Below are positions 28,283 to 41,111 of a DNA stretch of 64,000 nucleotides, piece by piece. The notes under the pieces were generated by a model. It saw nothing but the letters and a program-made list of their open reading frames with translations. It was not told the DNA's origin and made no database searches. The translations under genes and the position numbers were made by a program. The DNA lies in assembly GCA_963844035.1 (NCBI GenBank), contig CAWJMT010000031.1:64001-128000 (forward strand), in the 5' to 3' direction. Every line of letters begins with the position of its first letter. Position 1 is the stretch's first letter. The DNA is from an uncultured Gemmatimonadales bacterium (GTDB taxonomy: Bacteria; Gemmatimonadota; Gemmatimonadetes; Gemmatimonadales; GWC2-71-9).

Positions 28283-28425
28283 CGCGGATGGCGCCGATTC
28301 CATGCTTTCCCCTCCGGATGGACTGGCCGAACGCCCCCTTGAGATTGGCTTGAGAGCCAGGGGCGACCGTGGTCCTGAGCCCAAAGCAGGTACTGCCGGC
28401 CCATGGACCCCGGAGGAAAGAGCCA

Positions 28426-29071
28426 ATGAAGCGGACGATCACCTTCCTCGCCTCGACCCCCTTCCTGCTCGCCGCGTGCGGCTTGGCGACGAAGGGACCG
28501 CCGGCGGGACACGAGAAGATGATGACGGGGTTCTCGTGTACTGAGAGCATGGCGGCTCCAATACTCGATCTGCTGGGCGGCTTGGCCGGCATCTGGGTCG
28601 TGGGAGAGGCCGAAAAGCTCGACGAAGGCTATCCGAAGTCCGACGCGGGGACGTACTGGTCCATCGCCTTTGGCGGAATCTATGGAGTCTCTGCCGTCGT
28701 CGGTTTCGATCGGGTAACGAGATGCCGCGAGGCCAAGCGAGACCTCAGGGCACGGCAGGCCGAGGCAGCCGCCGCTGTGGCCGCCCGCAGGCGCAGCGCG
28801 GACCTCATCGCCGTTCAGAAGGTGCTGATCACGGGCGGCCGCGACACGATGACGGTGGGAGAGCGGACGCAGCTCGTCGCGACCGCGTACGACTCGACCG
28901 GCGCCGTGATCGTCGACAAGATGTTCGCGTGGTCGTCCTCGAACGACACGATCGCCTCCGTCACCACCGACGGGCGTCGTGCGGGCGCTGGAAGTCGGCA
29001 CCGCGGTGATCACGGCGAACGCGGGCAACGTGACCGGGACGGCGAAAGTCGTTGTGGTGCCGGACCGATGA
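28426..29071 (+). CDS. Lipoprotein with C-terminal Ig-like (Big_2) domain, copy 1 (frameshift near 28972)
   Basis: GGAGG RBS, MKRTITFLASTPFLLAAC lipobox, WSSSN..IASV. The shifted frame gives DGVVRALEVGTAVITA..., ending at TGA 29069-71. Confidence 0.7.
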
Positions 29072-29688
29072 AGCGCACGATCGTCTTCCTCGCCTCGACC
29101 CCCTTCCTGCTCGGCGCGTGCGGCCTGGCGATGACGCAGGGCCCGCCGGCAGGACACGAGAGCATGCCATCGTTCCAATGTACTGAGGACCGGAGGGGCC
29201 CCGCGCTCGACATCGTTCTCGTCGTGTGGAACACCCTTCTTCTTACCAGCAGCGCCGCAAGGAACCAGCTCGGTTCTGGTGAACAGGCCGCGTTGGCTAT
29301 CGGGACGGCCATTGCCGCAATCTCCGCCGGCGTAGGCTTCGACCGGACACGTCGATGCATCAAGGCTAAGGGACAGCTCGCGGTACGGCAGGCCGAGGTG
29401 GCCGCCGCCCGCAGGCGCGCCCTCGACCTTATAGCCGTTCAGAGAGTCCTGATCACGGGCGCCCGGGACACAATGACGGTGGGAGAGTGGACGCAGCTCG
29501 TCGCGACCGCGTACGACTCGAGCGGCGCCGCAATCGTCGACAAGACATTCACCTGGTCGTCCTCGAACGACACGGTTGCTTTCGTCCGCCCCGACGGCAT
29601 CCTGGAGGCGGAGGGACCTGGCACCGCGGTGATCACGGCGCAGGCGGCCAACGGCCTTGGCACGGCGAGTCTCGTGGTACTGCCATGA
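29068..29688 (+). CDS. Lipoprotein with C-terminal Ig-like (Big_2) domain, copy 2
   Basis: MKRTIVFLASTPFLLGAC; paralog of the previous gene; WSSSNDTVA.V..DG..GTAVITA. Confidence 0.75.
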   Translation: MKRTIVFLASTPFLLGACGLAMTQGPPAGHESMPSFQCTEDRRGPALDIVLVVWNTLLLTSSAARNQLGSGEQAALAIGTAIAAISAGVGFDRTRRCIKAKGQLAVRQAEVAAARRRALDLIAVQRVLITGARDTMTVGEWTQLVATAYDSSGAAIVDKTFTWSSSNDTVAFVRPDGILEAEGPGTAVITAQAANGLGTASLVVLP

Positions 29689-29729: not shown

Positions 29730-30267
29730 GTGGCATCGATCACACGTTTCCTCTACGCAGCGTTGGTCGTCCCGACCCTAGCCTTCGCCCAGGGGAAGCC
29801 AGTTGTGGAGATTGGCACCGACCTTGGTCTCACGATCCTGAGCAGCGGCGGCGAGTCGTATACCCTCTTTAACATCCCGGGCCAAGGAATCCTCGGCCAG
29901 CCCACGATTCGTGCTACGTTTTTTGCCGGTCGGTCCCTCACCATAGAGCCGCAGCTCGCGCTCACATGGCTTTCGGGCGACGGCGGGACCCAGACACGAG
30001 TGGGCCTGGGCGGACAGATCGGCTATCTCTTCAACGGCTCTACCGCAAAGTCGTTTTATTTGGCTGGATCTCTGGCTTATTACTCAATCTCCGACGAGAT
30101 CACCGACGGCGACTTTGGGGTTGGGTGGCAAGCTAGGGGTTCGCGTACCGTGGGGCTCCAGTGTTGGCGTGCGGTTCGAGGGCGGCTACCGCCGATGGTT
30201 CGATCACGAAATCAATGAGATCACACTCGGCGTTGGAGTGGGGGGCATCGTCCATCGCACTAACTGA
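29730..30267 (+). CDS. Small outer-membrane beta-barrel protein (frameshift near 30125)
   Basis: AAGGAG RBS, GTG start, signal peptide (AFA-Q), alternating Gly/aromatic beta strands, VRFEGGYRRWF. Confidence 0.65.
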
Positions 30268-30333
30268 AGCGCCGCGCCCTCGACAGGCGCGGGAATCCTC
30301 GACATGATCACTGGGCGAGAAGGGAGGGTACCG

Positions 30334-30813
30334 ATGCAGATCGAGGCACGCCTGGCCGCCGCGGGACTCACGCTCCCGAGGCCAGTAGTGCAGCCGGGCC
30401 CCACGAAGGTGCCGGTGGCCTGGGTCCGCCTGGCGGGCCATCGGGCCCACGCATCCGGCCATGGTCCGCTCGCCCCCGACGGATCCCTTGCGCTACCGCT
30501 CGGGCGGGTCGGCGCGGAGGTCACGCTCGAACAGGCGCAGCACGCCGCCGAGCTCGCGCTCCTCGCGCTGCTCGGCAGCCTGCAGCGGTGCATCGGCGAC
30601 CTGGATCGGGTGACGGCCTGGTTGACTATCTCGGCCTTCGTCCGCGTCGCGCCGGGGTTTACTGAAACGCCGGCGGTGCTGAACGGTGCGTCGGCCCTGC
30701 TGCTGCAGCTCTTCGGGCCGAAGGCCGGCGGCCACACCCGCACTGCCATCGGCGTGGCCGACCTGCCGCTCGGTGTGCCGGTGGTGGTCGCTGCCGAGGT
30801 AGAGATCGCCTAA
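30334..30813 (+). CDS. RidA/YjgF-family protein
   Basis: SGHGP, GRVGAEVT, NGAS.LL..LFG, GHTRTAIGVA.LP. Confidence 0.88.
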   Translation: MQIEARLAAAGLTLPRPVVQPGPTKVPVAWVRLAGHRAHASGHGPLAPDGSLALPLGRVGAEVTLEQAQHAAELALLALLGSLQRCIGDLDRVTAWLTISAFVRVAPGFTETPAVLNGASALLLQLFGPKAGGHTRTAIGVADLPLGVPVVVAAEVEIA

Positions 30814-31220
30814 CGAGCAGGGGTCGGCGCCGTCCTTCAACACATCTCCCAGCACCCGCACCAACGCCGCCAGCGTAAACGGCTTGACCAGCACCGGAGT
30901 CGCCGGTGAGGCCGGCACCCGGGCCAGGACCACCGGATCCGTGTACCCCGACATGTAAATCACCTCTGGATGGAGCCCGCGGACGGCCAGGCGCTTGATC
31001 AACCCTGGGCCGTCCAGCTCCGGCATGACCACGTCGGTGAGAACCAGGTCGATTCGCTGCGGGCAGGTGTCGACCACCGCGAGCGCCTCCAGACCGTTTT
31101 CCGCGGTCAGCACGGAAAAGCCGATACTGAGAAGCAAGCGCGCGATTGCGGGCCGTAACGTATCGTCGTCCTCCACGACGAGGATCAATCTCGCCGTGTC
31201 CCGGAAGGACCGGGGACACG
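30810..31220 (-). CDS. Stand-alone response regulator receiver (ends approximate; probable frameshifts)
   Basis: ILVVEDD, LVLTDVVMP, YMSGY and KPFT; the upstream PGHGE segment is in an adjacent frame. Confidence 0.75.
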
Positions 31221-31387
31221 GGGGCGCCCCCCTCTGGCGGTGTCGTCGGTCGGGGCCTATGGTCTGTCAACAGGGGACCTCCCAGCGATGATGCTGCGTT
31301 GTTGTAAGGGCTTCTAGCTGGGACACTAGCGAGCACGCCGCAAGCGATGCCAATACCGATTAGCTGGGGTTCCCATGCGCGACGCGC

Positions 31388-33315
31388 ATGGCAGAAAATG
31401 GAGCGTCCGTCTCGGTGGACTTGCGGGATCTGCAGTATTTCGTCGCGGTTGCGATCACGGGGAACTTGAGTCGCGCGGCCCGCGAAGCGCGCGTCGCACA
31501 GCCGGCGCTCTCCCGTCACGTCCGACGGCTCGAGCGCGAGTTGGGCGTCACCCTGCTCACCCGCCATCCCAAAGGCGTCACGCTGACTCCCGCCGGCGCG
31601 TCGTTCGCGCAGGGAGCCCAGGAGTTGCTGCACGGCGCGGCGGCATCGCTCGACCGTGCCGCCGCGACGGCCGCAGGGCACCGCGGCAGGGTGGTCCTGA
31701 GCGCCACGCTGGCGGCGATCGCGCGCGGGTTCCCCACGGCGGTGCAGGACTCGCTGCGCCAGGATCATCCCGAAATCACCGTCGCCATCCAGGACTTCGA
31801 CCCGCCGGACTCGTGGGAAACGGTCGCGGATGGAAGAGCGGACATCGCGGTCTGCCTGGAGCATGGGCGCGCTACGCCGGGCTCATCGCCGAGCCGCTCT
31901 GGGTCGAGACGCTGGATCGCGCCATCGTGCCCCGTGACCATCCCCTGGCGACTCGCGGCACCGTGTCGCTCCCCGAATTCGGAACCCTGCCCTTCATTTT
32001 CGCCCGCAGCACCATCAATCCCGGGACGTTCGATCGCGGGGCCGACGCGATGCGCAACGCCGGAATGCAGTCCCCCGTGGTGGCGCTCGAGGGCGATCTG
32101 CGCGCCGTCCATCTCGCGGTCGCCGCCGGCCGCGGCTGGACGTTGATGTCGCGCGCACGCGCCAGCGCGCCACCCGAAGGAACCGCCGTGTTGACGGTCG
32201 AAGGCTTCCACCTGGCTGCAACGCATGATGGTGGAGTGGCGCCGGGGTGAACGGCGTCCCGTGGTCCACACGGTGTTGCGCGGATGCTCGAGGTGGCCGG
32301 CAGCTATCCCGAAACGCAGGTGCGCGCGACCCCGGCCCTGCCCCCGCCGTCTCGCGCCCACCCGCCCGCGCCGCCCGCCGGGCACGGTGCCGCCTGGCGT
32401 GGACCTGCGGCACCTGCGCGCGCTCTTGACCGTCGGCGCCGCGCAAACCATCGGGCGCGCGGCGGCGCATCTCGGCCTTACTCAGCCCGCCCTCTCGCGT
32501 CAGCTGCGCGAGATGGAGCATGCGCTCGGCTTCACCCTGCTCGAACGCTCGGCGCGCGGCGTGGCGCTGACGCCCGCGGGAATCTCCCTCACCAGCGACA
32601 TCCCGGTGTTGCTCGCCGCGGGGGAGCGCCTGCAGCGCGAAGCGACGCGCGCCAGGCGCGGCAACGAGGGACAGTGCGTCATCGGCGCGGTGGCGACCGC
32701 GGCGTCGAGCGAGCTGCTGGCGCGCGTCACCGCCCAGTGCGCTGCCACGCCACCCCGCCGTCACGCTGGTCATCCAGGAAATGACCACGCCCGCTCAGTG
32801 GGCCGCGCTCACCCGCGCCGAGATCGATCTGGGGCTCGCCAACGCGCTCCCCACCGCGCGACGCACGCCGGCCGGTGCCATCGTCGCCACGCGCGTCCAC
32901 CACGATCGACTCGATACGGCGCTGTTGGCGCGGGACCACCCGCTCGCGGGGCGCCGCCGGATCGACGCGCGCGAGCTGGCGGACGTGCCCTTCCTGTTCA
33001 TGGACCGCGCGTTCCATCCGGCGTTCTACGATCGGCTCTATGCCGCGTTTGCCGCGTTGGGGCTGCGGCCGCGCGTCGATTCGACCTATGACGGGCTGCA
33101 AACCGTCTGGGCCCTCGCGGCGCAGGGCCAGGGATGGGCGGTCGGCTTCCACTCCCAGCTCGCTCGCCCCCCGGCCGGGACCGTGGCGGTCCGGATCGCG
33201 AAGTTCAGCCTGCCCTTTGGACTCGACCTGTTGTCACGGCGGGGGGAGACCAGCCCGACGGTGCGCGCGGTGACCGCCGTATTTCGGAAGCTCGGGCGGA
33301 AGGCGACGACGCTAG
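31388..33315 (+). CDS. Tandem double LysR-type transcriptional regulator (several frameshifts)
   Basis: Two LysR HTHs (DLRDLQYF..QPALSRHVRRLE and DLRHLRAL..QPALSRQLREME), each followed by a substrate-binding domain; no stop or restart at the junction. Confidence 0.75.
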
Positions 33316-33331
33316 CTACATTCCTCCACCT

Positions 33332-33626
33332 ATGCGCCCACTCACGGAATGGTCCGATGCCTCGCGTCGTCACCACGGCGTGGGGCTGGGTCGCCTGCAT
33401 CCTCGTGATCGCGTTCCTCACGCCCACCGGACGGTTTCTGCTCCGCCTGAACGCGATGCTGCGGGAGTCGGGAAACGCACAGGTCGATCTGCCGATCGCC
33501 GCCCTGCGCGTGTGGTTCGTGCTCACGCCGCTGTGCGCGTTCGTGCCCCCATTTGTGCTGCTGTTTGTCTGGTGGCGGACGCAGAAGTCGAAGCCGCCAG
33601 GCGGAAGGCCTTCGGCAGCGCGCTGA
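33332..33626 (+). CDS. Small two-TM membrane protein
   Basis: Two hydrophobic helices; start at 33332 (with frameshift) or 33357. Confidence 0.5.
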
Positions 33627-33653
33627 GCGGTTTGAAGGGGGGGGCCGGGCCGG

Positions 33654-34655
33654 GTGCTGCTGCTCATCAAGAATCTGATCTTCACCATACTCGTCCCGGG
33701 TACGGTCGCGGGATTCCTCCCCTACCTCATCTCGGCGCGGGCGACTCCGTCCATGCTCGCGGTACCTGGTCGGTTGTGGCTGGGCGGGCTCCTGGCGCTG
33801 GCCGGCGGGGCGGTGTATGGCTGGTGCCTGTGGGACTTCGCGACCCATGGCCGAGGCACTCCGGCGCCGATCGATCCACCGAAAGAGCTGGTAGTCCGGG
33901 GCCTGTACCGCACCATGCGGAATCCGATGTACGTGGGCGTGCTGCTCATCATCGCAGCCTGGCTCGCGCTGCGGCCGTCGTGGGCCTTACTCGGGTACGC
34001 CGCAACCGTGGGGCTGCTGTTCCATGGGTTCGTGATCGCCGTGGAGGAGCCGATGCTGCGGCGGCGGTTTGGCGCGGCGTACGACACGTATTGCCGCAAG
34101 GTGCGGCGCTGGTGGCCGGGGCGGCCGCGGCACCTGTCGCGCCGCGAGCGCGCCGCCCGCGAATTCGGGCTCCCCGCGTGGGCCCAGGTCGGCCGGAGGC
34201 GGCGGGAGCACATCGAGCGCGTCGTGGCGCTGCTCGAAGAGTGGGCCGACGACATGGACGTATCGGACCGCGAGCGCGACCGCTGGGTCAAGGCGGCGTG
34301 GCTGCACGATGCGTTGCGCGACGCGCGTCTTCAGGGCGCCGCGCACGGCGAGGCTGCGGCCGACCGGGCTGCCAAGGACGGCGAAACCGACCGCGGTGTG
34401 CTCGATGCGGTCCGCTACCACAGCTCGGGCTACGCCGGCTGGGACGATGTGGGCAAGATGCTCTACCTGGCCGACTACCTCGAGCCCGGTCGTAATGACA
34501 ACCGCAAGGAGCGCGCGAGCCTCGCCACGCGCGTGCCGCGGCAGCGCGACCGGGTGTTGCGGAAGATCGTGGCGTACGAAATCCGCTGGCGGGTGCGCGC
34601 CGGCCGCCCGGTTAATCCCCACCTGATCGCCTTCTGGAACGCGCTCGCCGGCTGA
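33654..34655 (+). CDS. ICMT/PEMT-like membrane methyltransferase fused to YqeK-like HD hydrolase
   Basis: N-half GTPAPIDPP..LVVRGLY...RNPMYVG..EE..L...FG..Y..Y; C-half WLHDA, HG, RYH and YLADYLEPGR. Confidence 0.75.
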   Translation: MLLLIKNLIFTILVPGTVAGFLPYLISARATPSMLAVPGRLWLGGLLALAGGAVYGWCLWDFATHGRGTPAPIDPPKELVVRGLYRTMRNPMYVGVLLIIAAWLALRPSWALLGYAATVGLLFHGFVIAVEEPMLRRRFGAAYDTYCRKVRRWWPGRPRHLSRRERAAREFGLPAWAQVGRRRREHIERVVALLEEWADDMDVSDRERDRWVKAAWLHDALRDARLQGAAHGEAAADRAAKDGETDRGVLDAVRYHSSGYAGWDDVGKMLYLADYLEPGRNDNRKERASLATRVPRQRDRVLRKIVAYEIRWRVRAGRPVNPHLIAFWNALAG

Positions 34656-34700
34656 ACGGTCATCCCAGTCATCACTTCCTGCTCAAGTTCGAATAGGATG

Positions 34701-34745
34701 AAAACGCGACCGCGTCGCCGGGCCGAACACCCAGACGACGCGGTC
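34701..34745 (-). terminator. Intrinsic terminator
   Basis: GACCGCGTCG...CGACGCGGTC stem (34708-17/34736-45) followed by GCGTTTT on the minus strand. Confidence 0.65.
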
Positions 34746-34818
34746 ACTTGTCCAGCGCGAGCCCGGCACGATCGTCTGCCGGCTCTTACCTGTGGCGCAA
34801 ATCGCGATTCGGTACCGG

Positions 34819-34881
34819 TCAGCTACCGATCAGGCGATCGCTTGCCCATGCCAGGTCGCGCGGGGATCTGTGGCTAGACAA
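34819..34881 (-). CDS. Putative 20-aa small ORF (MSSHRSPRDLAWASDRLIGS) on a short transcript
   Basis: TTG start immediately after AAGGAGGTGATCCA; flanked by a promoter and a terminator. Confidence 0.45.
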   Translation of the reverse strand: MSSHRSPRDLAWASDRLIGS

Positions 34882-34929
34882 TGGATCACCTCCTTGGTTG
34901 ATGTGGTGGTTGGGGCGGAGAACTCGCCT

Positions 34930-34958
34930 ATAGTAGAACCGATCGCTCGCCGATGCAA
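34930..34958 (-). promoter_or_regulatory. Sigma70-type promoter
   Basis: TTGCAT (34958-53), 17-bp spacer, TACTAT (34935-30) on the minus strand. Confidence 0.65.
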
Positions 34959-35002
34959 CGGGCGTGCTGGCGCGGTTCTATCTGTGACGTAGGATTCCCC
35001 TC

Positions 35003-35401
35003 ATGGCGAACGATCCCACGGTGCGAATTGAACAAACGCCCGACTGCCTGCTCGTGTCCGCCCGCGGAACCATGAGCGTGGCCTGGTTCATCGCTCTGGT
35101 CGGCCGGATCGCGCAGGTGGTACGCGACACTCCCACAAAGAGCGCCCTGATAGACGTGCGCGAGGTGGTGGGATCGCTGTCCGACATGGACCGCTACGAC
35201 ATCGGCGTGGGCGCCGCGTCGTTCGGGATCAGAGTGCCGGTCGGGATCGTGGGAACGGAGCCCCTGATCGAACCCGATCACCTCGGCGAGGTGGTCGCCC
35301 GCAACCGCGGCATGAACGTGCGCGCCTTCACGGATTACGACGCGGCGTCCAGGTGGCTCCATGAGGAGCGAGCGCACGCGTCCTCGCGCGAACCCGCCTA
35401 G
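35003..35401 (+). CDS. Hypothetical protein (STAS/SpoIIAA-like alpha/beta fold)
   Basis: ALIDVR, VARNRGMNVRAFTD..AA.RWL pattern. Confidence 0.65.
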   Translation: MANDPTVRIEQTPDCLLVSARGTMSVAWFIALVGRIAQVVRDTPTKSALIDVREVVGSLSDMDRYDIGVGAASFGIRVPVGIVGTEPLIEPDHLGEVVARNRGMNVRAFTDYDAASRWLHEERAHASSREPA

Positions 35402-36066
35402 GGCGCGACGACGATCGTGGCGTGCTTGACGTAGTCGAGCTTGGGAAAGTCCTTCGTCAGATAGGCGTTCCCCTCACTCTGGATGCGGCCCTGATCGGGG
35501 CCGCGCCCGCGCGGCGCGCCCTCGCCGTAGTCGGCATACAGCTTGTCCACGACCTCCATCCCCTCGATCACCTTGCCGAACGGCGCGAAGCCCATGCCGT
35601 CGAGCGAGCTGTTGTCGCCGTAGTTGATGAACACCTGGGTCGTGCGGGTATTGGGGCCCGCCGTGGCGAAGCTCACCATGCCGCGGGTGTTGCTCTGCCG
35701 TACGGGATCGTCGAGGATGTTTCGGGAGCGCCAGGTGGCCGCGACCTTGGGATCGCCGTGAATGCCGAACTGCGCCATGAAGCCCGCCAGCACCCGGAAG
35801 AACCGCTGGCCGTCATAGTAGCCGCTCGACACCAGCTCGTGGAACCGATCCGCACCCTGCGGAGCCCAGGCGCGTGTCACCTCGATCACGAAGGTGCCCG
35901 CGCTCGTTTCGAAGCGGGCGCGATACGTCGGCGGGCCCCCGTAGGTCGCGGCGGTGCTCGAGGGATCGGCGGTCGCGGCCGCGGCCGTGGCGGGCCGCTC
36001 CCGGCTGCAGGAGGCGAGCAGGGCGAGGGCGATCAGCGAAGCGGGGTTCCAGAGACGTGTGCGCAT
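35398..36066 (-). CDS. Cyclophilin-type peptidyl-prolyl isomerase, lipoprotein
   Basis: Lipobox LASC; FFRVLAGFMAQFG, NTRG, RTTQVFIN and FAPFGKV. Confidence 0.9.
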   Translation of the reverse strand: MRTRLWNPASLIALALLASCSRERPATAAAATADPSSTAATYGGPPTYRARFETSAGTFVIEVTRAWAPQGADRFHELVSSGYYDGQRFFRVLAGFMAQFGIHGDPKVAATWRSRNILDDPVRQSNTRGMVSFATAGPNTRTTQVFINYGDNSSLDGMGFAPFGKVIEGMEVVDKLYADYGEGAPRGRGPDQGRIQSEGNAYLTKDFPKLDYVKHATIVVAP

Positions 36067-36159
36067 CGGTCCGTCCGTCATGAAGTGGAGCAGAAACATA
36101 ACCGGGAATGGTGAGCCAGCGCACTGTGGACCGGCGGCGCACCCGGTTATTCTCCGCGG

Positions 36160-36645
36160 GTGGACAAGACCATGGAAAAACTTCGCGCCCTGCTCGCAGA
36201 CTTTTCCAAGCGCACCGCGAGCGCCCCCACCCCCTCTAAAACCGGCCAGCGCGCGGGCGATCGTAAGCGCCTTGCCTGCGCCGAATGCTTCCAGAACGTC
36301 GTGCGGCCCGTGCTGGAGAAGTTCATGGCCGAGCTCAAGGAAGCGGGCCACGACGCCTCGACCCGGGACAACACCGCCCGGGACGACGCCTATCCGAGCG
36401 TCGCCTTGTCGTTCACGCCCCGCGCCGGCGACGCCGAGCCGGCGCTCGCCTCCGCACTCCTGTTCAAGTACGATCCGCGGCGCGGGGTGCTGGTGCAGCG
36501 CGACGTCAAACCGTCACCCACCAAGGGACGAGCCGTGACCGCCACGAGCGACCGTCTCGGGACGATCGGCGTGGACGCCCTCTCGACCCAATGGGTCGAG
36601 ACCAAGACTCTGACGTTCGTCGAGGATGTCCTCAAGGTGAACTGA
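36160..36645 (+). CDS. Hypothetical protein
   Basis: Plausible codon usage; TATTCT -10 box 6 bp upstream of the GTG. Confidence 0.65.
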   Translation: MDKTMEKLRALLADFSKRTASAPTPSKTGQRAGDRKRLACAECFQNVVRPVLEKFMAELKEAGHDASTRDNTARDDAYPSVALSFTPRAGDAEPALASALLFKYDPRRGVLVQRDVKPSPTKGRAVTATSDRLGTIGVDALSTQWVETKTLTFVEDVLKVN

Positions 36646-37017
36646 TGAAGACACCGGTCGGTGTCGGTGGCCGCCGCGACCGTGAACTACTCGGGCAAGG
36701 ACGTCCCCGCCGGTGCCGGTCACCGCTACGTCCTCGTGGACTGCCGGATCGAAGCGCCGGTCGACAGCGTGGATTTCGAAGACTTCCAGCTCGTGCGCGA
36801 CCGCGCTGTCCTGGGATACGAGACCAACGTGGGCGACCACGAGGACGACGACTATTTCTATTGGTCCTACCTCGATGGGTCGGGTCGTCCCACCAGCACG
36901 GTTCCCATCGGCACCGGCCCAGTGGCGGCCCGGCTGGCGTTCAAGGTTCCGGTCGACGCGGCGCGCGGCTACCTGTTCTATTGGGGCCTCTACTGGGGCC
37001 CGTTCGACTTCCGCTAG
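36645..37017 (+). CDS. Hypothetical protein (DUF4352-like beta sandwich; probable 5' frameshift)
   Basis: TGATG overlap with the previous gene; GHRYVLVD..DFQL..RLAFKVP pattern. Confidence 0.55.
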
Positions 37018-37081
37018 TCTGGACAGCCCGCCACCGCCCTGCAGATTTGTCCGATCAACCTTCCACTGCCAGAGGTGTGCG

Positions 37082-37742
37082 ATGGCTCTCTCACTTGGCG
37101 ATATCGCCCCCGATTTCGAGGCCCAGACCACCGAGGGCCCGATGCGCTTCCACCAATGGATCGGCGACTCCTGGGCGGTGCTGTTCTCCCACCCCAAGGA
37201 CTTCACGCCCGTCTGCACCACCGAGCTCGGCTACATGGCGAAGCTCAAGCCGGAGTTCGACCGGCGGAACACGAAGATCATCGGCTTGAGCGTGGACGCC
37301 GTGGACAACCACAAGCGCTGGGCGCAGGACATCAAGGAGACGCAGGGGCACGCGCCGAACTATCCGATGATCGGCGACACGGACCTGAAGATCTCGAAAC
37401 TGTACGGCATGCTGCCGGCGACCCTCGAAGGAAGCTGCGAAGGGCGAACCCCGGCGGACAATCAGACGGTGCGCAACGTGTTCGTGATCGGCCCTGACAA
37501 GAAGATCAAGCTCATCTTTATTTACCCGATGACCACCGGCACGGAACTTCGACGAGGTGCTGCGGGTGATCGACTCGCTGCAGCTCACCGCCAAGCACAA
37601 GGTCTCGACGCCCGTCAACTGGAATCAGGGGGACGAGGTGATCATCGCGGGCTCGGTGTCCGACGACGACGCCAAGAAGATCTACCCGCAGGGGTGGAAG
37701 GCACCGCGGCCGTACATCCGCATCGTGCCCCAGCCCAAGTGA
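37082..37742 (+). CDS. 1-Cys peroxiredoxin (Prx6) (frameshift near 37540)
   Basis: FSHPKDFTPVCTTEL, YPMTTG(R)NFDEVLRVIDSLQL and TPVNW. Confidence 0.93.
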
Positions 37743-37767
37743 TTCAACTGGTTCACGGGAGGACCCG

Positions 37768-38176
37768 ATGCCCCCTCGCATGCGTAGGCTGCTCTCGACC
37801 TTGAGCGTGACGTGTCTGCTGCTGGCCGTGCTCCCGATCTACCGGGAATTGTCGCGGCCGGAGCGACATCTGGTGGACGCCATTCGCCATGCTGGTTCCG
37901 TTCACCGATGCCACGGATCGAGTGGAGGTCTACGTGCGCGGCGAGCCGCTGACGGCGCTGCTTCACGTCGGACGCCTGCGGCTCCTGGAGGACGGTAGGG
38001 CCAGCGTGGTGGCGGCGAGTGACGTCGGCGTGCGGTTCGACAATTCGGACCGGGTGAGGGCCGGACGCCTCCCCCTTCTGCTCGCATGCGCCGCAGTGGC
38101 CGGCGCAACCGCGCTCGCGTTGCTACTGGTACTGACGGGACGACTCGCCTACCGGGACGAGGCGACGCGCTCGTAG
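37768..38176 (+). CDS. Hypothetical membrane protein (frameshift near 37860)
   Basis: GGAGG RBS; N- and C-terminal TM segments in two frames. Confidence 0.55.
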
Positions 38177-41111
38177 GCGACCCGCGCACTGTCGAGCAGC
38201 GGCCGGAACTCCGGATCGCAGTCTTTCCACAGCTTGAGAAAGCGCTCGTAGTGCGTCGCCGCGGCGGGCGTATCGCCGAGCCGCTCGAATAGCTGGGCGC
38301 GCCGCAAGTGGGAGGGCGCGGCGTAGATCAGCGCGTACCCTGAGAACCCCTCGAATCCGCTGAACAGCGCGAGCGCCTGCCGCGCCTCCCCGTGGGCCGC
38401 TTCCAAACCGGCCCGGCGATAGCGTTCGCGCGACCCCGCCAGGAACGGAGACGAAAAGTGGTACTCGTACCACGTCTCGCCGACCGTCTGCCGCAGCGGG
38501 GCCAGCGCCAGTGCGGGCGCGCCCTGCACGATCGCCGCTTCGGCCCGGATCTCGAGCGCCAGGTCGCGGGGCAGCGTGGCCGCCGCGGATGGGCCGGTCT
38601 CGCGCGCCAGCGCGGCCGCATACCGCTCCGCCGCGACAAGATCTCCCAGGCGCGCGTTGACCAGCCCCAGCAGGTAGGGACGCAGCAGGTGATGGAACCC
38701 GTCGTGCGCGCTGAAATACACCGCGGAGTGGGCGCTGGGAGGGACGTCGGCGACGGTGAGCCGCTCGAGCGCCCGGCGCGCCTTCTCGAGCACCGGACGC
38801 GACGGCTCGAGGAACGGCGTCACCTCGAGCAGCGTGCCGTACTCGAGCGCACGTACCGAATCCTTCAGAGCCGCGCGCGCGAGCTCGCCCCGGGCCGTGG
38901 CCAGCTTCCCCTGCGCCAGGGCGAGGTACGCAAGCGTCACGTGCCCGGCCGCCTGTGCATCAACTGAGCGAGTCGGGTCGGTCAGGAGGCGGGCAACCGT
39001 CTGGGCTCCCTCCAGGTCACCGGCAAATACCGCCACGTCCCAGACCGGCAACGTGAGCGTCGCCTCGGACGCGTGCGGGAGCTCGGCCAGGACCTTCCGC
39101 TGTGCCTGCACATCGCCGCGCGCGAAGGCGCGCAGCACCCGCATCTCGAGCTCGCGATCGCTCGACGGGCTCAGCTTCTCGATCAGACCTACGATCGAGT
39201 CCAGGTCGGCGCCGCGGCCTTCCAGCGCCGCGATCCGCGCGAGGTGCACCAGGGAGCTGACGTACCCAGGATCGAAGTACAGCACCCGTTCGAACGGGCC
39301 GCGCGACTCCGCGATCGAGCGTCCCTGCTCCGGGCCGTAGTGAAACAGCACCTCACCGAGCTGACTCCACGCCTCGATGTCGTCCGGGTAAGTGCCGAGG
39401 ATCTGGCGGTACAGTCCTTCCGCCTCGGCGACCGCGCCGCGGCGCGTCGCCAGCAGCGCCCGCAACAGCAGGCGGTCGTGATCGGTAAGCCGGGCGCTAT
39501 GGCGCACCGCCTGCTCCGCGGTGCGCGCGATAAACGACCCCGAGAGCGTGGCCCACTCGGACGCGACGCTGAGGCGGTAATAGGCGAGCGCGAATACGGT
39601 ATCGAGGCTCACCGCCCGCTCGAACGCCGTGACCGCGGAGTCGGCCCGGCCGGCGCGGAACGCCGCTTCGCCGTCCAGATAGGCCTTGTACGCCGCGAGC
39701 GACGACGTCGTCACCGACGCGACCAGCGTGACCCGGCCCGTGGGACCGCGCGTGGTTCCGGCGAGCAGCTGCGTCGCCAGCGCATCCACCAGCGAGAACA
39801 CCTGTCCGCCGCTCCCGTCCACTGTGCCGCGCGCGAGCGGTACGGCGCGATGATCGCGATCGAACAGCGACGCGGTGATCTGCACGCGTCCAGCCGCCTC
39901 GACCACGTCGCCGAGCACGTACAGCCCGGCCCCGAGCCGCTCCGGCGACCTCGGCCGCGCTGGCCGGGTCGAGCAGCCCGGACCCGCGGCGTTGCACCAC
40001 GCTGAACACGGCATGCGGATCCACGGCGCGCAGCGCCCCCGCTCCGTCGAGACTGGTGCTCAACAGGCTCACCAGCCCTTCGCCCATGTACGTCACGTCG
40101 CCGCTGCCGCGCACCGCGAACGGCAGCACGGCCACGAGCGTCGGCGATCCGGCGCCGGGCGCGCGCCCGCGCCACTGCGTCCACCCGGCGACGAGCCCGC
40201 CCGCCACGAGCAGCGCCGCCACCGCCGTGCGCCAGCGGGGCGCGCCCCAAGCCCGCGGCGCCGCCGCCCCGCCGGTCGACGCGCCTTCGATCACGCGTTT
40301 CAGGTCGTCCGCCGACTGCCAGCGGTCCGCCGGGTCCTTTTCCAGACAGCGCATCACGCTCGACGCCAGCAGCGCCGGCACCTCGGGGCGGAGGCGCGCG
40401 ACCGACTCGGGACGATTCATCACCTGTGCCGCGAGCACCCGCTGCACGCCCCCGCTGAACGGGGGCCGGCCGCCGAGCATCTCGTAGGCCAGGACGCCCG
40501 CGGCGTAGACATCGGAGCGATGATCGACGGTGGGGTCACCGGACGCCTGCTCCGGCGCCATGTACGCGGGTGTCCCGAGCGCGATCCCAGCGGAGGTGAG
40601 GTTCCCTTCCCCTGTCGCCTGCGTCAGTGCTTTGGCCACCCCGAAGTCCAGCACCAGCGCGTGATCATCGACGAGCAACACGTTCTCCGGCTTGATGTCG
40701 CGATGCACGACGCCCCGCCGGTGCGCGTACGACAGCGCATCCAGCACGTCGCGCAGCACGCGCATCGCATCGGGGACTTTCAGCTGGCCGTCGCGGGAGA
40801 GCCGCGCGCGCAGCGTTTCGCCGTCGATGAACGGCATCGTGTAGTACAGCAGGCCGTCCGCTTCGCCGGCCGTCAGCAGCGGCACGATGTGGGGGTGCTG
40901 TAGCGACGCCGCGAGCTGCACTTCGCGGCGGAACCGCTCAACGCTCAGTGCGGCGGCGAGATCGGGCGGCAGCACCTTGACCGCCACGCGCCGCTCGAGC
41001 CCGCGCTCGAGCGCGACAAACACGCGGCTCATCCCGCCCCCGCCCAGCTCCCGCTCGACCGTGTAACGGTCGCCCAGATGCTGTCTGCAAGCGCTGGAGG
41101 AGATCGGTCAT
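38149..41111 (-). CDS. Ser/Thr protein kinase with TM, TolB-like segment and TPR repeats (frameshifts near 41078, 41035, 39945)
   Basis: ERELG.GGM, VAVK, HRDIKPEN, DFG, GTPAYMAPE, TM helix, VAVLPF and TPR-rich C-terminus. Confidence 0.9.

Follow-up and report, generated by a model that had tools for sequence, protein, structure and literature searches.

A candidate rre-like mini-mRNA with an extended Shine-Dalgarno sequence and a predicted masking switch in Gemmatimonadota

The window analysed here is a 64,000-nt stretch of a contig from an uncultured Gemmatimonadales bacterium, and our analysis concerns an apparently empty gap within it. The gap is flanked by a convergent PEMT-HD gene (33654-34655, plus strand) and a divergent 132-aa ORF (35003-35401, plus strand), and a cyclophilin gene ends at 35398 on the minus strand. 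A first-pass annotation had placed a hidden transcription unit on the minus strand of this gap, and its positions for the promoter, leader, 14-mer, TTG-started ORF and hairpin were all verified. In the direction of transcription, the unit begins with a predicted sigma-70-type promoter at 34958-34930 (TTGCAT at 34958-34953, a 17-nt spacer, and TACTAT at 34935-34930), and the transcription start is predicted near 34923. An A/C-rich leader (34923-34896), with a 5' GCCC (34916-34913) that is conserved in the alignment, leads to an extended Shine-Dalgarno (SD) sequence, AAGGAGGTGATCCA (34895-34882). This is a 14-nt perfect complement of the 16S rRNA 3' tail and directly abuts the TTG start codon at 34881. 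The ORF (34881-34819) has 20 codons, with Ser at codon 2 and a TGA stop, and no Pfam match to it was found.

Two further elements lie inside the ORF: strand X of a long-range helix, here called helix B (codons 7-11, 34861-34849), which shows compensatory changes with 34768-34755, and an in-frame anti-SD/anti-start element, GGGCAA-GC-GAUCGCC, at codons 12-17 (34847-34832), which was located by the RNAalifold consensus. Beyond the stop codon come CCGAAU (34812-34807), which may form a kissing contact with the loop of the terminal hairpin and occurs in one subfamily only, then strand Z (34774-34755), which is predicted to capture strand X and the anti-SD in fold B, and last a 3'-terminal hairpin with a short U-tract (34745-34701), a likely terminator. 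The region between stop and hairpin, previously put at about 75 nt, measures 73 nt; far from being a mere spacer, it shows conservation and base-pairs with the ORF. Both the anti-SD within the ORF and the helix between ORF and 3' region had been missed in the first reading.

The promoter hexamers are as proposed, but they match the sigma-70 consensus at only 7/12 positions and were missed by our strict promoter scan, which returned 0 sites on either strand and likewise saw no promoter for an antisense antitoxin. The support for the promoter is comparative: TANNNT is found at the right distance in 41/65 family loci, and is combined with TTG 22-24 nt upstream in 35/65 (control window, 5/65). The terminal hairpin (34745-34708) consists of a 12-bp stem (34745-34734 with 34719-34708) and a conserved loop, GUUCGG (34728-34723), and four U follow at 34704-34701. 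In the stem, 9/12 pairs have changed on both sides with 95% of cells paired, and the pair 34741-34712 exceeds a tree-aware null (E<0.05). The hairpin is certain, but intrinsic termination, as originally proposed, is less so because the U-tract is short, is displaced by 3 nt from the stem and is weak across the family.

We considered 24 sequencing runs, of which 14 were left out for containing under a fifth of the query words, and compared four metatranscriptome runs. Contigs cover the element in 4/4 of these, with 0-9 differences (34735-34964 with 3 differences; 34755-34848 and 34820-34903 with 0; 34701-34835 with 0; 34750-34963 with 9). These contigs, which carry neither strand, ends nor level, weakly suggest that the element is expressed. 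Two of them (X1 and X6) extend past the predicted start by about 40 nt on its upstream side, and one continues into the cyclophilin gene. No RNA contig covered the HD gene in these runs, which we do not read as silence. In the close relative represented by run X6 (contig on 34750-34963 and 35409-35529), the cyclophilin gene abuts the RNA promoter and the 132-aa ORF at 35003-35401 is missing.

Several observations concern the surroundings of the gap. The flanking ORF at 33654-34655 (plus strand) carries both a phospholipid methyltransferase domain (PF04191) and an HD domain (PF01966), which may be a real fusion or the result of a lost stop. At 31388-33626 (plus strand) lie what we take to be two tandem copies of a LysR-like regulator, broken over several frames, with a 60-nt repeat at 72%. 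The segment 36713-41032 presumably holds a peroxiredoxin-like ORF and an ORF for a Ser/Thr kinase with a repeat domain. The ORFs in this segment appear frameshifted and, taken with the breaks in the LysR-like copies, suggest indel errors in the assembly. Another ORF (28369-29688, plus strand) comprises two similar lipoprotein-like modules in tandem. Elsewhere in the genome, extra 16S fragments lie at a contig end (G000:C5:46-519) besides the full 16S gene on C3, and there is a selenocysteine tRNA call.

The reported identity of the 14-mer with the exact complement of the 16S 3' end holds for this genome's own 16S tail. A search outside rRNA loci, which had been suggested as a check, found one non-16S copy: the 14-mer occurs twice in the 3.47-Mb genome, at this locus and in the 16S gene, against an expectation of 0.031 copies per genome (order-5 Markov). 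The duplex of SD and 16S tail is computed at -25.3 kcal/mol. Elsewhere in the genome, 5/858 long ORFs have at least seven matches to the SD core upstream of their first ATG, given a rough choice of start. The complement is 13-17 nt long in 64/67 family loci (13-15 nt in 59 and 16-17 nt in 5/67), and the start codons among 71 family matches are TTG (65), GTG (5) and CTG (1).

BLAST with the element gave matches in 26/61 genomes, this one included; several matches were weak, and the strong ones start at the SD. In this search 2/6 congeners had no match. A diagnostic 18-nt pattern (SD, start codon and TC) matched 70/151 family genomes, as a single copy in 69/70, and a reversed-pattern control gave 0 matches. 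The exact pattern was absent from 81/151 family genomes, in which the element would be either divergent or dispensable. Among the 71 family matches, 67 carry a reading frame 11-25 codons long (46 of them with 20 codons and 11 with 19); the other 4 lie inside long ORFs and were dropped from the element set, and 2 more were dropped from the switch test for duplication or short flank. When codon 2 was left free, the pattern matched 94/251 phylum genomes, an upper bound because some matches are chance. About 75/99 rows of this search read TTG/GTG-TCN (hand count), with a few Pro, Thr or Ile exceptions, across four families of the class. The proposal of a hidden transcription unit built on a maximal SD and a tiny ORF is supported, with conservation among relatives.

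Beyond the phylum, a wider scan listed at least 120 matches (80 titled), and among the titled ones most were from Alphaproteobacteria, followed by Gemmatimonadota/Gemmatimonadales, with single records from Gammaproteobacteria and Planctomycetaceae. Nearly all elements among the matches listed have short ORFs, and the closest sequence types, again among the matches listed, are Gemmatimonadota records. Elements of the same build occur in records labelled Pseudohongiella (Gammaproteobacteria; L050) and Planctomycetaceae (L059); the Rfam model CC2171 scores 38.9 bits for L059 and gives no match for L050. Viral contigs yielded 34 pattern matches, of which 7 were distinct, had a short ORF and had sufficient flanking sequence, and the 20-codon type was not found among those 7 (ORFs of 9-30 codons with enough flank were used in the viral-contig/duplex and frame analyses). 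The viral-contig loci L307, L310 and L328 carry rreB-type elements of 14-16 codons, possibly host DNA beside a prophage site.

The RNA gene appears to stand alone. Its neighbours vary, with the window's three flanking proteins matched at 1/50 other loci (one PEMT match) and unrelated flanks around the gene in two congeners, and the gene downstream of it here is convergent. A shared context was observed in L013 and in about 10-17/51 loci, with a divergent KDO transferase gene upstream and co-directional Rce1-like and convergent thioredoxin-fold genes downstream; this is probably the ancestral site.

The reading frame and the peptide have had different fates. The distance from the start codon to the internal GGGCAA is 31, 34 or 37 in 150/152 distinct elements of the 20-codon type, i.e., indels come in threes, unlike in the flanking non-coding spacers, which vary base by base. 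The stop codons of 120 ORFs of exactly 20 codons interchange (TGA in 88, TAA in 18, TAG in 14), and the first stops in the other two frames fall at scattered positions. The indels in threes and the interchanging stops show that the frame is under selection. In L356 and L357, one base has been lost in the anti-SD and the C-terminal residues have changed, with the stop still at codon 20. By comparison, pN/pS computed pairwise for 110 distinct ORFs lies at 0.91-1.04, and at 0.81-0.91 in shifted frames; these values need to be read with caution considering that the pairs are not independent, that the 120 metagenome loci were picked via an internal motif and that RNA structure pushes pN/pS upward by constraining synonymous sites. 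The near-invariant ASDR codons occupy the same positions as the anti-SD, and across 120 sequences they show zero synonymous change. The anti-SD motif is present in 59/67 loci not selected on it, and an anti-SD-like word, from a list drawn up after inspecting the sequences, is present in 66/67 of them. The peptides are hydrophilic (median GRAVY -0.74, maximum 0.80). An exact look-up of the peptide in a protein collection returned nothing, a weak result in view of the start residue and the short length, and BLASTP of the 20-codon peptide against the 14-codon type gave no match. Judged from these comparisons, the frame is conserved and the peptide sequence drifts neutrally, which indicates that selection acts on initiation and a ribosome pass of fixed length rather than on the peptide. 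The earlier suggestion of a small peptide gene is hence unsupported as the main point, and the proposed comparison of ORF and structure conservation came out with frame and folds conserved and the peptide drifting.

Structural conservation was assessed with RNAalifold on an alignment of 40/69 non-redundant members of one subfamily, which gave a 13-bp hairpin masking the SD and start codon (fold A) plus the terminal hairpin. In minimum free energy (MFE) predictions for nascent RNA, fold A with the SD paired to the ORF appeared in 40/45, 37/45 and 14/14 elements of three Gemmatimonadota groups (45 were sampled per large group), with on average 6.3-7.2 SD nucleotides paired vs. 1.6-2.2 in shuffled sequences. 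Fold A is without covariation because its pairing is invariant. Helix B joins codons 7-11 to 34768-34755 and extends as pairing of the anti-SD with 34774-34769. Changes on both sides of helix B were counted in 46 cells, vs. 20.8+/-5.0 in shuffled alignments and 3-18 in slid registers, and four pairs alternate (A-U 22/G-C 14; C-G 20/U-A 15; G-C 23/C-G 7; C-G 35/U-A 3), counts that are inflated by the relatedness of the sequences. Under the tree-aware null with 69 members, the 1 pair with E<0.05 is that of the terminal hairpin, and helix-B pairs rank 2nd and 4th (E=0.13 and 0.33). Opposite the anti-SD, the UCG of the 3' strand never varies and is paired in all members (40/40). The 20-, 19- and 14-codon subfamilies all retain helix B in unrelated sequence, and a whole-region duplex test of it was noisy (z below -2 in 56%, 28% and 50% of the three Gemmatimonadota groups).

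Other contacts were considered as well. The leader GCCC could pair with the GGGC of the ORF once the latter is freed in fold B; in the subfamily alignment 97.5% of cells are paired there, with zero compensatory change. The post-stop CCGAA co-occurs with UUCGG of the terminal loop (TTCGG is found in the 3' part of 76/79 sequences that carry the motif vs. 10/79 that lack it), and a per-sequence test found a kissing pair of at least 6 bp in 76/77 vs. 27/75. Zero compensatory change was found for the kissing pair, and its helix in the window's register is 44.6% paired, which is uninformative, the register being one column off in most rows. A helix between the post-stop region and strand Z, proposed for fold A, was weak (73% paired) and was rejected.

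A switch of the SD between the nascent and the finished RNA is predicted from these folds, all computed with pseudoknots and proteins excluded. The window's two ensembles lie within 0.4 kcal/mol of each other (A -102.7, B -102.3 kcal/mol), and the probability of fold A, p(A), is at least 0.95 until 34765, 0.24 at 34750 and 0.44-0.50 at full length, so that unmasking is not clearly predicted for the window's own full-length copy. The computed cost of opening the RNA from the SD to +15 drops from 14.8 to 8.9 kcal/mol, vs. -25.3 kcal/mol gained on 16S pairing. Across 65 family loci, the median p(A) drops from 0.85 in nascent RNA to 0.02 at full length and is 0.62 when the 3' part is shuffled, the real value lying below the shuffled one in 59/65; full-length p(A) is at least 0.5 in 15/65 loci, and nascent p(A) is at most 0.8 in 20/65. 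The 14-codon type is predicted to follow the same masking and capture logic in unrelated sequence, and in the 11-codon and one 19-codon example the SD is still masked in the full-length MFE. Specifically for 45 mostly alphaproteobacterial elements, anti-SD capture was 0.43 vs. 0.43 in shuffled sequences, so the predicted switch may not extend to the whole class.

The closest known precedents are rreB of Bradyrhizobiaceae and rreR of Rhodobacterales, small mRNAs described by Hahn et al. (RNA Biol 14:1353, PMC5711450). In the accessible portion of that paper, rreB measures 165 nt; it has a 17-nt 16S complement, a GTG start and 14 codons, and its SD is predicted to be folded into a hairpin that leaves a 5' seed exposed. 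The RNA sediments together with 30S, is translated only weakly and causes no phenotype when overexpressed, and changing its start to a stop codon raises its half-life from 10 to 37 min; the look-alikes reported there were found only in Alphaproteobacteria.

Our preferred explanation, which we consider reasonably probable, is a free-standing single-copy gene for a structured mini-mRNA of ~225 nt, likely of the rre/CC2171 kind, that would dock tightly on 30S, be poorly translated, pass from an SD-masked to an SD-open state and be gated by the ribosome. In the nascent RNA, according to the fold models, the in-frame anti-SD would pair with the SD and start codon and leave a few 5' SD bases free. 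When strand Z (34774-34755) emerges, it would capture codons 7-11 and the anti-SD and thereby free the SD. The rest of the ORF would then be locked in a helix predicted to start at about +18 to +21 here, just past the footprint of an initiating ribosome; in the family loci pairing of the ORF with the 3' part sets in anywhere from +7 to +24 (with one at +66), so this fit is loose. By analogy with rreB, a ribosome may bind through the long SD duplex, leave slowly and unwind helix B to reach the stop codon, and its passage may free the anti-SD, upon which the RNA would be masked again or degraded. The RNA would in this way act as a switch gated by the ribosome, with free initiation capacity read out in its fold or lifetime. 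Binding or sequestration of 30S had been offered at first reading as an alternative to a peptide: binding is plausible by the same analogy, and bulk sequestration is doubtful because 20-fold overexpression of rreB left growth unchanged. A more speculative extension, which we think unlikely, would unite rre/CC2171, the Gemmatimonadota family and the look-alikes in other phyla as one ancient class that uses its own translation as a clock and serves as a sensor or quality check of initiation-competent 30S. Such an RNA would be unmasked only when complete, would trap one initiating ribosome across the 16S tail, and would be reset or destroyed by its passage.

The same RNA could also do its work without any switch output, by holding or testing 30S as a store, a decoy or a check on 16S 3'-end maturity. 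The long complement, which spans the free 16S tail down to its base and persists across the family, the strength of its duplex and the prevalence of TTG starts all suit such a role, as does the report, in the part available of PMC5711450, that rreB stays on 30S and binds ribosomes even without a start codon. We nonetheless judge it unlikely, since the same text describes 20-fold rreB overexpression without growth effect and ribosomes far outnumbering rreB, and since a pure decoy would need neither a conserved stop nor indels in threes. Instead of two alternating folds, there might be one fixed tertiary fold, an X:Z pseudoknot formed inside the loop of the SD-masking hairpin, together with the kissing pair, and opened by the ribosome alone. 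Strand X does lie wholly within the loop of hairpin A, the covarying pairs of helix B sit in X:Z with none in the anti-SD part, and folding programs cannot model pseudoknots. What makes this fold improbable to us is the invariant 3' UCG opposite the anti-SD, paired throughout the alignment, together with the 14-codon type (L014), whose anti-SD lies inside the helix of ORF and 3' region and so excludes A; moreover, a 13-bp helix in a closed 28-nt loop would be topologically strained.

Neutral drift also bears on the idea that the gene acts through its 20-aa peptide, with the RNA structure merely holding expression low. Length, start and stop are conserved, the residues MSS and ASDR are near invariant, and Hahn et al. 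(PMC5711450, available text) treat RreB and RreR as conserved small proteins; against this, pN/pS does not fall below that of shifted frames, the ASDR codons lack synonymous change, coincide with the anti-SD and are crossed by a natural frameshift, and the 11-, 14-, 20- and 25-codon types share no peptide similarity, so we hold a peptide function to be very unlikely. Still less probable is a toxin RNA, be it a CreT-like RNA that sequesters tRNA or a type I toxin mRNA silenced by its fold. The strong SD, mini-ORF and stable structure resemble CreT, and the co-transcriptional SD masking resembles aapA1 (PMC5416894), as far as the accessible parts of those reports go, and codons 2-3 (TCT, AGT) are among the genome's ten rarest. 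However, AGA, AGG, ATA, CTA or TTA stands at codons 2-3 in just 2/67 loci, the Ser tRNAs GGA and GCT are present and also read the common TCC and AGC, the peptides are hydrophilic, the gene is a single chromosomal copy, and no CRISPR-like repeat was found within 30000-40000. Hardly any weight is left for three further readings, in which the locus would be a 16S fragment, the remains of a gene start, or a leader or attenuator of the gene downstream; all are already largely refuted here. An Rce1-like gene follows on the same strand in about 10/51 loci, but the next gene here is convergent and the context differs among congeners; the 16S match is antisense and ends at 14 nt; and decay is excluded by conservation and compensatory changes. 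Rfam at gathering thresholds gave 0 matches in the window.

The rre RNAs were described once, in Alphaproteobacteria, as small-protein genes of unexplained function. A version from a distant phylum reveals which features persist, namely the long 16S complement, weak start, Ser at codon 2, short frame, anti-SD and helix between ORF and 3' region. With 110 distinct ORFs indicating that the peptide is not the selected thing, the question moves to the encounter of RNA and ribosome. If it is true that the class senses or checks initiation-ready 30S, translational control would gain a new general layer. The element also lends itself to structural work on a maximal SD helix, and it is overlooked by annotation pipelines and Rfam. 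In the open-access literature we found no paper on the Gemmatimonadota version, the peptide neutrality or the two-fold switch, and a full-text search for the motif had 16S primer papers among the matches listed.

Comparisons with other systems place the element near several of them. Like CreT (bioRxiv 10.1101/2024.01.05.574328), as presented in the available text, it is a mini-ORF RNA that may act as RNA after translation initiation, but it differs in being without tandem rare-tRNA codons and CRISPR-like repeats nearby. Folding that masks the SD during synthesis and a long-range rearrangement that controls translation are shared, as predictions here, with aapA1 of H. pylori. In the accessible part of that work (PMC5416894), the finished RNA is silent and encodes a toxic peptide, whereas here the full-length RNA is predicted to be open and the peptide is hydrophilic and apparently neutral; no type I antitoxin for this RNA was found in the strict promoter scan of either strand. 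For S. aureus ribosomes, start-proximal extended SD helices are reported to form and to help weak start codons; the available text of that study (PMC13009471) concerns ordinary mRNAs with a few extra pairs, in contrast to a dedicated self-masking 14-nt RNA.

Among Rfam families, RF01867 (CC2171) gave 19.1 bits against the window (E=0.07, cut-off 75), matched only in the 5' block, and RF02471 (Ms_IGR-5) was not among the 2 covariance-model matches with E up to 10. CC2171 is a Caulobacter sRNA detected by Northern blot, with no function given in the accessible part of bioRxiv 10.1101/2022.01.24.477521, and also appears as a table entry in what is available of PMC11701678. Its model positions 1-33 (leader, SD, start and UCU) match our element almost letter for letter, and its consensus likewise has a helix of ORF and 3' region that closes just before a terminal hairpin, but the remainder aligns poorly. 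Named Gemmatimonadota records score 25.7-35.6 bits in 5/6 cases, with no match in one; the model covers the alphaproteobacterial forms, and 2/20 test loci exceed the cut-off. The genome's best CC2171 match (19.8 bits, before the rRNA promoter) proved to be a terminator-like hairpin and not a second copy. The family had been thought possibly undescribed, which holds only in part: its class is published for Alphaproteobacteria (rreB/rreR) and catalogued in Rfam as CC2171, but the Gemmatimonadota form lies below the Rfam cut-off and was absent from the literature that we searched.

The resemblance to rreB and rreR, as they appear in the available text of Hahn et al., extends to a small gene in a lineage-variable context, a match to the 16S 3' tail that continues beyond the canonical SD as far as a non-AUG start codon, an ORF of 14-20 codons, and an SD and start predicted in a hairpin with the 5' seed free. 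The rre genes stand alone with a promoter and terminator of their own; here, a promoter pattern and the terminal hairpin are conserved. Codon 2 is Ser (UCU) as in rreB, whose primers show the same block of SD, start and TCT. Measured against the features given by Hahn et al., the element has a complement up to the start codon, a short ORF with a weak start and a predicted SD/start hairpin, with 14 nt of 16S complement where their search asked for at least 16 nt. Unlike rreB, it occurs in Gemmatimonadota, starts with UUG and not GUG, has 14 and not 16-17 nt of complement and is about 225 and not 165 nt long, and the first base of its start codon, unlike that of the GTG of rreB, is not complementary to 16S. 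The peptide is unrelated to those of rreB and rreR, the masking element lies at codons 12-17 and not directly after the start, and the A-to-B switch and kissing pair predicted here are not described for rre in the portion of the paper available. By its anatomy, the element appears to work like an rre RNA yet falls outside the Rfam CC2171 family. Convergence is an alternative, but a common origin with rre is likely because Ser at codon 2 is shared and yet lies outside the 16S complement.
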